Assembly: GCA_964016885.1 (NCBI GenBank)
Contig: OZ024763.1
Coordinates: 16,926,001-16,990,000 of the forward strand
Source: Eledone cirrhosa
Taxonomy: Eukaryota
DNA: 64,000 nucleotides
Direction of reading: 5' to 3'
Under the pieces are notes generated by a model, which was not told the DNA's origin, made no database searches, and was given only the letters and a program-made list of their open reading frames with translations. A program made the position numbers and the translations under genes. Below are positions 5,582 through 63,700 of this stretch, in pieces (within the stretch, counting starts at the first letter, position 1; every line of letters starts with the position of its first letter).

Positions 5582-5756
5582 ATAAGATCGAAAGATGGTT
5601 AAAAGAGTTCCAAGTATTTTATTAATAAAATACTTGGAACTCTTTTAACCATCTTTCGATCTTATATTATTTATACTCCAGTCCTACAAACTGTAGAGTG
5701 CTTCTTATCCGATATTTGCATTGTTTTATTGTGCTACAATAAAACTCACCTCCTAC
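5582..5756 (+). mobile_element. Fold-back 3' fragment of the HHR element family at 19879/20231
   Basis: Perfect palindrome ~5582-5666 centred on TATTTTAT-TA-ATAAAATA, then the family tail with GAGTGCT; flanked by (TA)n. Confidence 0.85.
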
Positions 5757-6293
5757 ATATATATATATATATATGTATATATATATATATATATATATAT
5801 GTATATATATATGTATATATATATCATAATTTCTCTATTCGCTATAAATCAACATACATAACGTTTAAGAACCGTTAATATATCTCTCTATATATTTGTC
5901 TGAATTTTTCATCATTTTACACTTTATCTACCAAGATGTGTGTGTATATATATATGTGTGTGTGTGTGTGTGTTTGTGTGTGTGTGTGTGTTTAGTTAGA
6001 CTTTCGTATTATCGTATATCTGAATATATGTCTATCTGTTTGTCTGTCTATCTGTTTGTCTGTCTATCTGTTTGTCTGTCTGTCTTTCTATCTGTGTTTC
6101 TGTCTGTGAGTTTGTCTATCTATCCTTCCTCTCCGTTTGTCTATCCATCCATCCATCCATCTATCTATCTATCTATCTATTTATCCATCTATTTATCTGA
6201 GTAGCTGTCCGTCTCTCCATCCGTGTATGAATCTATCTATCTATCTATCTATTTATCTATCTATCTATTTATCTGTCTATCTGTCTGTCTGTA

Positions 6294-7345
6294 CTTGCCC
6301 CCTTCTTTTGTGCCCTTGTGGCTAATAAAGAAATATATCTATCTGTCTGTCTATCTATCTACCTGTCTATCTATCTATCTATCTATTTGTCTGCCCGTCT
6401 GTCTATGTATATATCTATATATCTATTTGTCTGTTCTTATATTTTGTACACGACTGTATGTAAAATCCCCGGCATGTCTTTGTATTGTCCCCTTTTCTTG
6501 TGCGCCCTTGTGGCAAATAAAGAAATATATCTAACTGTCTGTCTATATATTTCAATCGATGTATCTCAGTCTATCTATCTGGGTGTGTACAACCCCCGTG
6601 TAACGTCTCTCCCCCTATTGGGGATTCCAATTGTTATTTTATTAATAGTTTTATTTTCATATACCTGTATGTCAACTCCCCATTTGTATTTGTCCCCTTC
6701 TTTTGTGCCCTTGTGGCTAATAAAGAAATCTATCTATCTATCTATCTATTTATCTATCTATCTATCATTTTACACGTTTTTATTGTATGTAAACTTCCCC
6801 CTTTGTATTTGTCCCCTTCTTTTGTGCCCCTGTGGCTAATAAAGAAACATATGTATCTATCTATCTATCTAGGAAAGGTGGGTGAAAGTGGCGAGAATGG
6901 CCCGAGTGAATGGGCCTTCTCTCTATATCAGCCTGTAGGTTGAGGAAAAGGAGGAGGAGAGGAAAGGAGTACAAACTCTTCGTACTCCTGGAGTTGAGGG
7001 TTGCACATTTTTTCGGGGGTATTTGTTACCCATATGAAATGTCTCCCCCTATTGGGGAAAATCGACTAATTTTTAAATTGCATTTGTGATAGTATTTTAC
7101 ACGTTTTTATTGTATGTAAACTTCCCCCTTTGTATTTGTCCCCTTCTTTTGTGCCCCTGTGGCTAATAGAGAAACATATCTATCTATCTATCTGTCTATG
7201 ATGTTATTTTATGTTATTTTATTATATATAGTTTATTGTTATTTATTAATGTTAAAGTTATATAATTTTTATGTAAAACCCCCGCCGTCACGTCTTGTAA
7301 TGTCCCATTTTTGTACACCCCTGTGGCAAATAAAGAAAGATATCT
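6294..7345 (+). repeat. Locally repeated LINE-like 3' tail unit (~6 copies)
   Basis: Recurring TTGTCCCCTTCTTTTGTGCCCYTGTGGCTAATAAAGAAA followed by (TCTA)n at ~6296, 6487, 6690, 6809, 7137, 7301. Confidence 0.65.
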
Positions 7346-7557
7346 ATGATGTGTCTACGTAGTCATATAACGACATCGCCACCCGCTACACAGCCCCACC
7401 CGTTACACAGTCCTCTCCCACCCCGTTCAGCTGTTCTCTCTATCATTAACAGCGACCAAGTAAAAACTTTTTCTGTGTCCAACAACTGTCGCTGACACAG
7501 AAGTGAAAGTAACTAAGTCCGTTTGTTTGGTGCTCCTTGTTTCTAAGTGGAACTCTC

Positions 7558-59431: not shown

Positions 59432-59489
59432 ACATGATAAGACGCATGGCTAGGGCCTCATAACAGGGTACATAGCAGAGCCCCTCTTC

Positions 59490-59935
59490 TTTTTTGCCCA
59501 CTTACTCCTAAGAAGATTATGGGGTCAGAGTTCTCAAATACCCCTTCCAGTGGGTCATGTAAGAAGCACCCATCTCCTACTGATCTGACTGGATTCCCAA
59601 GCGAGGCCAGCCAAGCTCTTGGATGTTATCCAACCAACTTGCTCAGAGCCTACCCTTGGGTCTCTTACCTTTTGATTTTGCCCATACAATCTGTGCAGCG
59701 ATTCTTCCCTGAGACATTCCAACCACATGTCTGTAGTATCAGAGCTCTGATCTCTCAATTTGGATAAGTAGTGGCTCTACCTTGATCTCCGAGCTACTCA
59801 CTTTATTGAGTATCATTACTCCAAAGACTCTTTGGAGGAATCCTATTTCAGCTTCTTGTATTTGGGATCGCATTATTTTGGTCAGTACACAAAATTCTTC
59901 ACCATAGATAAGGGTTGGCACAAATATCAAAAGGT
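59490..59935 (-). mobile_element. Degraded RTE-type LINE ORF2 3' fragment
   Basis: IFVPTLIYGEEFCVLTKIMRSQIQEAEIGFLQRV...VEPLLIQIERSEL. Confidence 0.8.
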
Positions 59936-62712
59936 GACCCTAGTTTTTTTTTTTTTTTTTTTTTTTTTTTTTCTAAGGGATTTTTTTTCCCCCACTGTTG
60001 GATTGACAATGGACCTTAGTGCAATGTTGGAGCTGAAATAGGGTCAGCTCATAATGTGGGGTCCTCCTTCAAAGTTTTTTCGATGGTAAGGGCCCCCTAA
60101 AGCTCTTAATCAGGGCCTGGATGAAGAGACCAGTGGGTGTTGATGAGAAGATTGAGATAATTATATGAAACTAGTAGAGTTGTCCTCGGCTTTCACTTGC
60201 AGGAAGAGAGGTGGGTGAGGGGAAGTGATAGAGAGAGAGGTGGAAAGATGGGGAGGTAGGGAGAGGGAGAGAATGAGGGCTCTGTGATTTAGCAAGTCTA
60301 TCTAAACAACGGGGGTTAAAAGTGTGTTTATCAAACAGAGATTTGAAATTATTCCCAATCTATCTGTCTGTCAAATTTGTCTGTCTCTATGTATGTCACC
60401 CTCCCCCCCTCTCTCCCCTTCTCTCTCTCCCCTTCTCTCTCTCTCTCCCCCTCTCTCTCTCTCCCTCTCCCCCCCTCTCTATCCCCCTCTCTCTCTTTCT
60501 CTCTCCCCCTCTCTCTCTCCCCCTCTCTCTCTTTCTCTCTCCCCCTCTCTCTCTCCCCCTCTCTCTCTTTCTCTCTCTCCCCCTCTCTCTCGTTCTCTCC
60601 CCCATCCCTCTCTCTCTCTTTCTCCCCACCATCCCCCTCTCTCTCTTTATCTCACCCCCATCCCCCTCTCTCTCTTTATCTCACCCCCATCCCCCTCTCT
60701 CTCTCAGCATATATATATATATATATATATATAAATCAATACTCATACACACACATATGTGTGTATATCATCCAAAAATGGATGGTGAACAATGATGATA
60801 TATATATATATATATATATATATATATATATATACATTCACACAACATCTAAATGTGTATATATATATTTATGTGTGTATGTTTAAATTATATATATATA
60901 TATATATATATATATAGAGAGAGAGAGAGAGAGAGAGAGAGAGAGAGAGAGATAAATAGATATATAGAGATGAATATGTATATATGCACACATACACACA
61001 TACACCACACACACATACATCACACATACATACACCATACATACACATACACCACACATATACACACGCACCACACATACACACATACACCACACACACA
61101 ACACACTCAACACCCACACCACAAAGACACACACACACACCAAACAAACACACACACACCACAAAGACACACACACACCCCACCAAACACACACACACCC
61201 CACCAAACACACACACACACACCACACTCAAACATACCACACCACACCTTATACACACCCCACCAAACACCACACTCAAACATACCACACCACACAGACA
61301 AACACACACACACCACACTCAAACACACCACACAAACACCATATACACACCACAAAGACACACACACACACACACACCATATACACATACACCACACCAC
61401 AAAAACACATCACACCACACACACACACCAGACAGACACACACACCACACCACACACACACGCCACACCATACACACACACCACACCACAAAGACACACA
61501 CACAGGACACCACAAAGACACACACACACCACACCACACAAAGACACACACACCACAAAGACACACACACCACACCACACACACCACAGCACACCACACA
61601 CTCCACACCACACCATACACACACATCACACCACAAAGAGACACACACACCACACCAGAAAGACACACACACCACCATACACACACACCACACCATACAC
61701 ACACCACACCACACCATACACACACTCCACACCACACCATACACACACATCACACCACAAAGAGACACACACACACCACACCACAAAGACCCACACACCA
61801 CACCACACCATACACACACACCACACCATAAACACACATCACACCACAAAGAGACACACACACCACACCAGAAAGACACACACACCACACCATACACACA
61901 CATCACACCACAAAGAGACACACACACCACACCAGAAAGACACACACACCACCACACACACACACCACACCATACACACACACACCACACCACAAAGACA
62001 CACACCACACCACACCACACACACACCACACCACACACACACTCCACACCATACACACACACACCACACACACCACAACACACACACCAGACCATACACA
62101 CACCACCATACACACACACCACACCACACACACACCACACCACCATACACACACACACACCACACCACACACACCACAACACACACACCACACACAAAAC
62201 AGTATGTAGGTAGTATTTCAAATATCGATTGTTGAAAACTGGAATATGTCCACACAAGGTAATTTGATGGCTGCTATCGTCAATTTTACTGATTGGCATA
62301 GCTTTTTATGTTGAGTTTTTTTTTATTTAACTTATATTTAACTATATATGTGTATGTGTGTGTATATATATATATATATATATATATATATATGTGTGTG
62401 TGTGTGTGTGTATTTATGTATGTATGTATACTCGTATATATATATATATATATATATATATATATATATATATATATATATATATACACATGTATATATA
62501 TATAATATATATATGTGTGTGTATATGTATGTATATATATGTATATATATATATGTGTGTGTGTGGGTTTATGTATACTCGTATATATATATATATATAT
62601 ATATATATATATATATACACATGTATATATATATATATATATGTGTGTGTATATGTATCTATATATATATATATGTGTGTGTGTGTGTGTGTGTGTGTAT
62701 ATATATATATAT

Positions 62713-63700
62713 ATTTATTAAAATAACAGATTAAAGTTTAAGCAAAGAATCGCTGCTTTCACCCTTAACGGGATCTTCTGAAACTAACAAAGTCAATCTG
62801 TGAACGCAGAAGTGAATATTTCGAAAAACGTTGCAACCAAAGGAAGACAGGAAGACGATACTTTGGTTCGTGGAAACGTTCCCTGGCAAAGAACGGGAAA
62901 AAACGAAGATAATACGTCATTATTTGGAGCAGTGAAAAACAATTACACGCAAAGACAAAACCACATTTATGGTATAAAAGAAGTCGTAGACTAATATTCT
63001 ATTAGGTGATTCATAGAGACGTTCTCTGGCATTGAACGGAAAAAACGAAAATAATACGTCATATGTGGTGCGTGGAGAACAATTGCATGCAACGACAAAA
63101 CCACGTAAATGGTATAACTGAAGTCGTAGACTAAAATACAGAGGTAACTGAAATTAAATAAATACAGAATCATTCGGTTTCCTAGTTGGAATTTTAGTCT
63201 ACGACTTCAGTTATACCATTTACGGGTTTTGTCTTTGCGTGCAATTTTTCTCTACGCTCCACATATGACGTATTATCTTTGTTTTTTCCGTTCAATGCCA
63301 GAGAACATCTCTATGAACCACCTAATAGAATATCAGTCTACGACTTCTTTAATACCATAAACGTGGTTTTGTCTTTGATTGTAATTCTTTTTCACTGCTC
63401 CAAATAATGACGTATTATATTCGTTTTTCCCCTTCTTTGCCAGGGAACATTTCCACGAACCAAAGTATCGTCTTCGTGTCTTCCTCCGGTTGTAACATTT
63501 TTTGAAATATTCACTTCTGCATTCACAGATTGACTTTGTTAGTTTCAGAAGATCCCGTTAAGGGTGAAAGCAGCGATTCTTTGCTTGAACTTTAATCTGT
63601 TATTTTAATAAATATTTGCTCTACGGTTCTTATATATTTGATATATATTTATCCTTATCGAGCCCTCTTTGGATTTAGTCTTCAAATTTATTATTATTAC
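62713..63700. mobile_element. Long fold-back element (~430 bp arms) with U4A hammerhead-like motifs (62735-62785 minus, 63541-63591 plus)
   Basis: AGTTT-CAGAAGA-TCCCGTTAAGGGT-GAAA-GCAGCGATTCTTTGC-TT-RAACT; tail homologous to 41815-41935 (-). Confidence 0.75.

Follow-up and report, generated by a model that had tools for sequence, protein, structure and literature searches.

Why should insertion families whose flanks do not align carry the same seven bases shortly before the point at which each meets a (TA)n repeat? The question is raised by a 64,000-nt stretch of the Eledone cirrhosa genome (contig OZ024763.1, positions 16,926,001 to 16,990,000; hereafter the window), in which a first-pass annotation had named nine copies of a GAGYRCT motif and proposed a conserved cis element for recognition by reverse transcriptase (RT) or endonuclease, or a second RNA structure. 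All nine 7-mers (5696, 16792, 17952, 35203, 36570, 46497, 48265, 50670 and 63660) are exact at those + strand coordinates, and (TA)n begins 37-69 nt downstream of them, close to the ~35-70 nt first given. The flanks indeed resist alignment between families, with tails aligning in 2 of 105 family pairs.

The motif is enriched at TA junctions. GAGYRCT lies 30-90 nt upstream of 17 of 106 TA junctions in the window (reverse complement, 9) and of 30 of 357 in 390 kb of other genome sequence (reverse complement, 12); the positional enrichment proposed as a check was confirmed in 710 kb outside the window, where the motif occurs at 51 of 569 TA junctions against 7.3 expected and its distance to (TA)n peaks at 50-59 nt. 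That distance had been described as fixed relative to the 3' end. It is family-specific, spanning 30-89 nt overall, and is constant only within each family. The 7-mer is short and degenerate, with many genome matches far from TA, and its AGYRCT part is almost a palindrome.

By their predicted proteins, the families that we could trace to an ORF are Hydra-clade Penelope-like elements (PLEs), and old relatives: these proteins are 27-75% identical, and the earlier description of the families as unrelated does not stand. The ORFs (813-817 aa) carry an MGSSD RT motif and VY..YIG near the C-terminus, as in a GIY-YIG-type endonuclease; in RWK-like and DKT motifs, R35, R37, W38, S114, D115, K116 and T117 are invariant in 9/9 aligned families, and a CxCX5C linker precedes the endonuclease in L083, L014, L026, L032 and L033. 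Pfam returned no family for 4/4 proteins, and the clade assignment is based on these motifs and on likeness to published Hydra proteins. A descriptor search found a sense-strand hammerhead in the pLTR of 6 of 16 reference leaders (families A, D, G, H, I and J), several leaders being cut too short and the hammerheads of B and K being read by eye; the descriptor also matched in 14 of 19 metagenome families. RW and DKT motifs, the CxCX5C linker, a C-terminal GIY-YIG-type endonuclease, a hammerhead in the pLTR, (TA)n targets, and tandem and inverted copies with a one-sided tail, the last three all observed in the families here, are common to these elements and the C-terminal EN+ PLEs of the Hydra clade (Craig et al., 2021; PMC8557442), whereas the tail measures 57-138 nt here and 30-40 bp there. 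Some 3' UTRs here are ~4 kb long.

GAGYRCT forms one side, the 3' strand, of RCTC-stem-NN-GAGY-NCT, a bulged hairpin in which compensatory pairs occur; the base after GAGY is variable (A, G, T or C), and the motif extends further, with RCTC as its 5' partner. The first upper pair is C-G in 49/69 cases and U-A in 14/69, and the outer pair is G-C in 18/30 and A-U in 9/30. Two-sided changes occupy 55 cells, a figure reached by 0 of 500 shuffles, although the shuffles and the Fisher tests ignore relatedness, and the three inner pairs of the lower stem, invariant and built into the search rule, contribute no covariation; alignment A2 comprises 60 of 62 rows, with L256 (2 rows, a duplicate of L235) omitted. 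The covariation that the first-pass annotation had asked for is present. The arms are 12-112 nt apart with pairing retained throughout, and therefore a single-stranded fold fits better than a duplex protein site. As to the strand, G-U and A-C pairs number 8 versus 6 inside stems and 15 versus 14 at closing positions, and predicted pairing is 0.64 for sense versus 0.59 for antisense (p=0.31). A covariance model trained only on metagenome sequences found 7 of the 9 named sites (E<0.05) and had no match in the non-Hydra PLE tandem L321. Rfam gave 0 matches at gathering score in 19 leader-bearing loci; in the window, the best 150 of 356 weak matches all scored below gathering, and lay mostly over simple or inverted repeats.

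The element order is hammerhead, end 1, hairpin 1, end 2, hairpin 2, ATG, where the ends are sites at which copies stop. In these terms the window contains:

5675..5703, + strand: hairpin 1 of family G (arm ACTC at 5675; GAGT-GCTT at 5696-5703); the copy ends near 5753 (end 2), the inverted copy near 5583 (end 1)
16511..16640, + strand: hammerhead of family B with a long stem II, read by eye, end approximate
16715..16799, + strand: hairpin 1 of family B, with a 61-nt loop, missed by the covariance model
17845..17892, + strand: hammerhead of family C; inverted partner at 17718-17767, minus strand
17935..17959, + strand: hairpin 1 of family C; end 2 near 17995, and end 1 of the inverted copy near 17682
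19804..19832, - strand: hairpin 1 of family G, second copy
31868..31895, + strand: hairpin 1 of family A
33691-33718 (changed arm), 33943-33970, 34160-34187 and 40645-40672: further copies of hairpin 1 of family A
32006-32013, minus strand: truncated copy of hairpin 1 of family A
32614..32637, - strand: hairpin 1 of family I; hammerhead at 32695-32745, minus strand
35074..35157, + strand: hammerhead of family A, with variant core UUGAUAA
35183..35210, + strand: hairpin 1 of family A; end 2 at 35254
35782..35811, - strand: hairpin 1 of family H; the inverted copy has a hammerhead at 35920-35970 (+) and end 1 near 36023
36570..36577, + strand: 3' strand of hairpin 1 of an I-type family, with no RCTC arm, a fold-back junction just upstream and no model match
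43065..43093, - strand: hairpin 1 of N1, a non-coding tandem family of ~600 bp
46480..46504, + strand: hairpin 1 of family D; end 2 at 46548, and end 1 of the inverted copy near 46213
46727..46751, - strand: hairpin 1 of an I-type family; inverted copy with a hammerhead at 46898-46944 (+)
48249..48272, + strand: hairpin 1 of the family at 48265; also at 37774-37797 (+), 33468-33502 (minus) and 44937-44971 (+)
50653..50677, + strand: hairpin 1 of family E, the arm being GTTC in this copy; end 2 at 50706
63618..63667, + strand: hairpin 1 of family K; related copy at 41846-41908, minus strand
47898..48192, - strand: control, 3' end of a non-Hydra PLE with a CxxxxCxxC linker, a hammerhead at 48039-48090, two end sites and no hairpin motif

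The motif had been placed on the ribozyme-sense strand, which holds only at family level. The hammerhead nearest 36570 sits on the opposite strand, within an inverted copy (36440-36484); no hammerhead lies near 5696; and the one beside 48265 (48039-48090, minus strand) is part of another PLE.

In families A, B, C, D, E, G, H, I, J and K, the hammerhead is followed by hairpin 1, hairpin 2, the ATG and the Hydra ORF; family F showed both hairpins and the ORF. Matches to the pattern GAGYVCT..ATG..KNIP number 494, whereas the reversed control yields 8. An autonomous partner, which the first-pass annotation had sought, exists in the Hydra ORFs behind both hairpins; family B has an autonomous 813-aa Hydra ORF in L080, and family K an autonomous leader in L159.

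Copy ends abutting (TA)n fall just before these hairpins. In 774 kb, 99 of 112 such ends sit 0-15 nt upstream of a hairpin arm (chance, ~11%), family A contributing 38 of the 99, and the remaining 13 fall elsewhere. Hairpin 1 accounts for 47 of the 99 and hairpin 2 for 52; 80 lie 6-9 nt from the arm, and 70 have at least 3 bases in common with the target repeat. These counts come from stricter filters adopted after a looser mapping had classed 148 ends as "other", 132 of which came from a microsatellite in the family B loop, and they leave 23 ends without TA unclassed; hairpin arms were set by hand in this genome and taken as the nearest RCTC, with no pairing rule, in the metagenome families. 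The quantity that is fixed is the distance from a copy end to the next hairpin. An RCTC predicted at one fixed spacing past the distal end was found in families A, G, H and I/J. In four families, an RCTC near end 2 was imposed by the tail-end patterns. The distal 3' end has as its counterpart a second hairpin copy, located just past it and not copied into the insertion, and the one seen in the first-pass annotation is the copy belonging to the inner end site. What survives of the proposed cis element is a covarying hairpin tied to insertion ends; its geometry had been misread.

The two hairpins are spaced 57-138 nt apart, and TA stands 6 nt before hairpin 2 in 11/15 cases from this genome and 10/25 from the metagenomes. 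Non-coding tandem families retain both hairpins; in N1 the second reads GAGA, and a tail-end search gave mostly scattered spacings. The family at 48265 has a hammerhead core upstream in sense and a hairpin 1, with two window copies ending ~22 nt before the arm; a pattern search for its second hairpin gave 0 matches, and no ORF was reached. A non-Hydra PLE of the same genome has two ends with TA overlap but no such hairpin, and two ends are therefore possible without this motif.

The architecture recurs beyond this genome. At least one hairpin precedes the ORF in 38 of 41 metagenome Hydra families (median amino acid identity, 42%) and two hairpins do so in 26 of 41, whereas antisense controls gave 18 and 0, and shuffles 43 and 0 of 820; the other 3 of 41 have no hairpin before the ORF, and 18 of 78 loci, which have no recognisable ORF start, were left unscored. 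In 25 of the 26 two-hairpin families, 14-49 nt separate hairpin 2 from the ATG downstream of it. Where a second copy was present in the contig, that copy ended 0-4 nt before the arm in 12 of 27 families. Among the published coral and sea-cucumber consensi (PMC8557442), in which the motif is kept, we read the hairpin by eye in Hydra-2_Amil and Hydra-2_Ajap and twice in Hydra-1_Ajap; Hydra-1_Crog and Hydra-1_Amil have variants of it, and it was not seen in the Hydra-1_Obim consensus. A search of viral contigs found no Hydra relative.

How a PLE chooses an internal start site, and why its tail is optional, are open questions, and the sole in vitro study of a PLE left the protein-binding RNA motif undefined. 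In that study, of the Poseidon element PAc of Anolis (Frangieh et al., 2024; PMC11167929), reverse transcription began at two internal sites bounding the tail and required RNA lying 3' of those sites. Our direct observations are of a hairpin that is duplicated and covaries, and of copy ends at a TA-like spot immediately 5' of either copy of it; we read those ends as RT start sites by carry-over from this other PLE clade. On that basis it is probable, in our judgment, that the duplicated bulged hairpin between hammerhead and start codon is an RNA site bound by the element's protein, with RT starting ~3-9 bases upstream, and the hairpin is likely the RT-positioning signal that accounts for the PLE tail. 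A tandem transcript would run 3' UTR, hammerhead, hairpin 1, hairpin 2, ORF. With one hairpin bound, the protein would nick (TA)n, and the nicked end would pair with ~3 bases (UAU) of RNA just 5' of that hairpin, from which copying would proceed. Starting at hairpin 1 would yield a motif-free copy, and starting at hairpin 2 a copy with hairpin 1 plus 30-89 nt, the pattern of the first-pass annotation; the 57-138-nt hairpin spacing would be the optional tail, and non-coding tandem families with both hairpins may be copied in trans.

The same end-position data also fit a hairpin acting on DNA, whether as single-stranded cDNA or as an extruded donor or second strand, which the GIY-YIG endonuclease would recognise, cutting a nearby TA, resolving the intermediate and setting the ends. 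The wobble and folding tests favour neither strand clearly, and AGYRCT comes near to the symmetry of a palindrome; moreover, the tail has been ascribed to endonuclease-mediated resolution (PMC8557442), and, according to earlier work reported in PMC11167929, the endonuclease required the Penelope tail in order to recognise DNA. However, if RT starts at these ends, as was measured for Poseidon, a hairpin beyond the end would be absent from that cDNA; the variable span between arms speaks against a duplex site, and a 3-base target overlap suits primer-template pairing. We regard action on DNA as unlikely.

Quite improbable, to our minds, is a role in expression (translation start, promoter or RNA stability), with ends set only by TA overlap at AT-rich spots nearby. 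The closeness of hairpin 2 to the ATG would suit it, and PLE promoters are located in the pLTR (PMC6765202), but both hairpins are retained in non-coding tandem families, hairpin 1 is conserved equally although distant from the ATG, and 99 of 112 ends lie just before a hairpin despite the abundance of TA spots elsewhere in the leaders. That so short and degenerate a motif, with its many matches away from TA, arose by chance, or that the tails share recent homology, is very improbable; the first-pass annotation had named simple recent homology as grounds for abandoning its proposal, and this is refuted by the junction enrichment, the non-alignment of tails, the 27-75% protein identity and conservation in metagenome families and published consensi.

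Rather more tentatively, we lean towards a general form of the RNA-site proposal, in which a duplicated 20-40-nt RNA hairpin would be the portable start signal of Hydra-clade PLEs, bound by a telomerase-related RT, with priming at a fixed position a few bases upstream by way of 3 bases shared with the nicked (TA)n. If true, internal initiation and the PLE tail would both follow a rule readable in the sequence, and any hairpin-bearing RNA might be written into TA repeats in trans; a portable hairpin would be a minimal cis signal for RNA-templated insertion. PLEs are the eukaryotic retroelement group that has an ancestor in common with telomerase, and because the Hydra hairpin is short, duplicated, covarying and placed at a set distance from both ends, the choice of start site and the optional tail can be tested directly. 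The hairpin can also serve to flag Hydra elements and the non-coding units parasitic on them.

Our literature search found no published description of the hairpin, in keeping with the first-pass annotation, and the terms "hairpin", "stem-loop" and "palindrom" have 0 matches in the main text of PMC8557442. PAc resembles the present elements in its two ends bounding a tail and in the AT-rich DNA cut. The ends of the present elements lie in the 5' leader, with ~3 bases of target overlap and a hairpin each, whereas PAc initiates within its ORF, at sites that fall in an AC-rich stem-loop and show no homology to the target; no duplicated conserved motif is named for it. Non-LTR retrozymes, non-coding tandem units from PLE pLTRs, resemble the ~600-bp families N1 and N2 (PMC7229834; bioRxiv 10.64898/2026.07.22.740005), and a term search of both papers found no hairpin or stem-loop element. 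The telomerase template-boundary element and SL5 of DRT10 (PMC12632851) offer an analogy only, in a related RT, a short primer-template overlap and a positioning stem-loop beside the template; there the stem-loop sits on the 5' side of the template and halts synthesis, whereas the hairpin here lies 3' of the presumed start.

Two other candidates were dropped. A new ribozyme class was set aside by inference, the motif being small and the ends falling beside it, not inside; the idea that the hairpin pairs with hammerhead stem III was given up because an ACTC/GAGT stem III is absent from the families here. Stem III is ACTC/GAGT in some published Hydra hammerheads.

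GAGYRCT is one half of a hairpin. An RCTC arm lies upstream of GAGY, and its first base tracks Y (GCTC with GAGC, ACTC with GAGT), so that the unit reads RCTC, upper stem, loop, a bulge that is mostly 2 nt long (usually TT, TA or TC), GAGY and NCT. Of 30 hairpins from this genome, with arms placed by hand, 18 have an outer G-C pair and 9 an outer A-T pair; for the first upper pair the counts are 16 C-G and 11 T-A, and in metagenome families 49 C-G and 14 T-A out of 69. Wobble pairs and predicted folding favour neither strand as the one that folds. An alignment of 60 rows pairs in 89.9% of cells, and 55 cells change on both sides, a count above all 500 of 500 shuffles and every slid control, although these controls remove relatedness only in part. 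Both hairpins of family F apparently have a 1-nt rather than a 2-nt bulge (L098, L104, L165), which suggests that the two copies change together.

The first-pass annotation had placed GAGYRCT-type motifs at nine sites in the window, and all nine are there, 37-69 nt before (TA)n where about 35-70 nt had been claimed. Outside the window we sampled 390 kb first and 710 kb in all. The motif stands 30-90 nt upstream of 30 of 357 TA junctions in the first sample, versus 12 for its reverse complement, and 51 of 569 junctions carry it in the full 710 kb, where 7.3 would be expected; the distances range over 30-89 nt and peak at 50-59. The proposed fixed distance is therefore constant within a family but differs between families, from 30 to 89 nt.

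We placed copies from 774 kb (window plus sample) on 16 reference leaders. Among the resulting 3' ends, 112 abut (TA)n. Hairpin 1 begins no more than 15 nt downstream of 47 of these and hairpin 2 of 52, and 13 lie elsewhere; chance would put about 11% of ends that close to a hairpin. A further 23 ends without TA were left unclassed. The TA run begins 6-9 nt before RCTC in 80 of the 99 hairpin-associated ends, and at least three bases are common to element and TA run in 70. Family A supplies 38 of the 99. The annotated motif is hairpin 1, which a copy includes if it ends at the second site; hairpin 2 belongs to that end and is absent from the copy. The idea of a conserved cis element or RNA structure gains from the both-side changes and from the ends beside the hairpin, but the motif itself goes with the inner end.

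The autonomous partner envisaged in the annotation was found, as intact Hydra-clade open reading frames (ORFs) of Penelope-like elements (PLEs), some in tandem. The 813-817-aa proteins show the features of the Hydra clade, namely RW, DKT, CxCX5C and, at the C-terminus, a VY..YIG endonuclease, and the sequence 5' of their ORF runs hammerhead, hairpin 1, hairpin 2, then ATG. At L026, a PLE ORF has a 3' hammerhead resembling that at window 16511, and the 16792 tail lies on its inverted copy. A genome-wide pattern, GAGYVCT before ATG..KNIP, gave 494 matches versus 8 for a reversed control; families C, D, E, F and K were identified through it. The predicted RCTC occurs just 3' of the distal end at one dominant spacing in families A (563 matches), G (292), H (39) and I/J (186); where such loci were inspected, a second hairpin and then a Hydra ORF follow. 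The same search returned mostly scattered matches for N1, a non-coding tandem family, and none for the 48265 family, whose other copies differ from the pattern used. The families are not unrelated, as had been thought: their proteins are 27-75% identical over 150 aa. Nor are the tails recent homologues, since 2 of 105 tail pairs align. These families are old relatives that have kept the motif.

Family B occurs as head-to-tail arrays of about 6.65 kb (L080-L082), in which the 813-aa ORFs are intact and the 3' UTR, about 4 kb long, is rich in simple repeats; this family was probably active recently. Non-coding tandem units with both hairpins (L088, L022, L031, L200-L202; window 43065-43093), about 600 bp long in L088 and L022, are likely retrozyme-like parasites of Hydra elements. 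The family A hammerhead core reads UUGAUAA or UUGAGAA, not CUGAUGA (window 35074-35157, forward strand; L123), with similar cores by eye in L032 and L022; this would replace C-G by U-A at the 3-8 pair, a variant already known. The core is CCGAUGA in family D and CAGAAGA in family K.

The hairpin also occurs in other organisms. Metagenome contigs yielded 78 Hydra loci, 60 with a recognisable ORF start, which fall into 48 families of median identity 42%. An upstream stretch of 160 nt or more was available for 41 families, of which 38 have at least one hairpin and 26 have two, spaced 44-118 nt apart; the antisense strand gave 18 with one and 0 with two, and 820 shuffles gave 43 and 0. Of 27 metagenome families that have another copy on the same contig, 12 show it ending 0-4 nt before an arm, and in 7 it runs to a contig end. 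A hairpin model built from metagenome families only finds seven of the nine window sites at E<0.05, missing 16792 (long loop) and 36570 (a copy without the arm). Among the published consensi seen in PMC8557442, we recognised the hairpin by eye in Hydra-2_Amil, Hydra-2_Ajap and, twice, Hydra-1_Ajap, and a variant form in Hydra-1_Crog and Hydra-1_Amil; it was not seen in Hydra-1_Obim.

A second PLE type in the same genome, which by linker definition would be Neptune/Nematis-type, has a CxxxxCxxC linker, (TA)n targets, a hammerhead and two end sites. The hairpin model has no match in its 10-kb tandem, L321, and its matches in L322 and L323 represent distinct Hydra-type insertions. Judged on this one control family, the hairpin appears specific to Hydra. 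L321 contains a 1169-codon open frame and has a 4.07-kb tandem unit (also window 47898-48192 and 37593-37730); both its end sites read AATATCG, each followed by a short GCTAA-CAA word that is possibly this element's own start signal.

In PAc, a Poseidon PLE of Anolis, the text of PMC11167929 describes reverse transcription that begins at two internal RNA sites bounding the tail and requires RNA 3' of them, with the binding motif left undefined. The simplest reading is that each hairpin would be that protein-binding motif: the element protein would bind the hairpin and prime immediately 5' of it, using a short overlap with the nicked (TA)n target. This likeness is drawn from the PAc text, and the PAc structures (Fig. 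S1B, S2C) may bear on it. Two rivals to this reading remain, namely that the hairpin is a DNA-level endonuclease signal, or that it has a role in expression. On strong positional evidence, we regard the hairpin as a real candidate cis RNA element within a known retroelement clade. It is apparently unpublished: the full-text literature, as distinct from supplementary figures and Repbase/Dfam notes, yielded no description of it.

The window lies in a 3.0-Gb, (TA)n-rich genome, and its TA repeats hold many short insertions, often a direct copy with an inverted truncated copy, a PLE insertion form described in the text of PMC8557442. Other features of the window are as follows.

5242-5300, 10060-11590, 18829-18952, 50810-50948, 51554-51705: abundant short interspersed repeat without the motif
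3012-4124 (forward): open frame ending in a stretch that we take to be forkhead-like; introns of this gene may host the insertions
40574-40939 (reverse): fragment that presumably resembles the C-terminus of a CRE-type non-LTR element; a family A end interrupts it
19000-19428 (reverse), 43508-43897 (reverse), 43818-44207 (forward): fragments that we take to resemble RTE-type LINE C-termini
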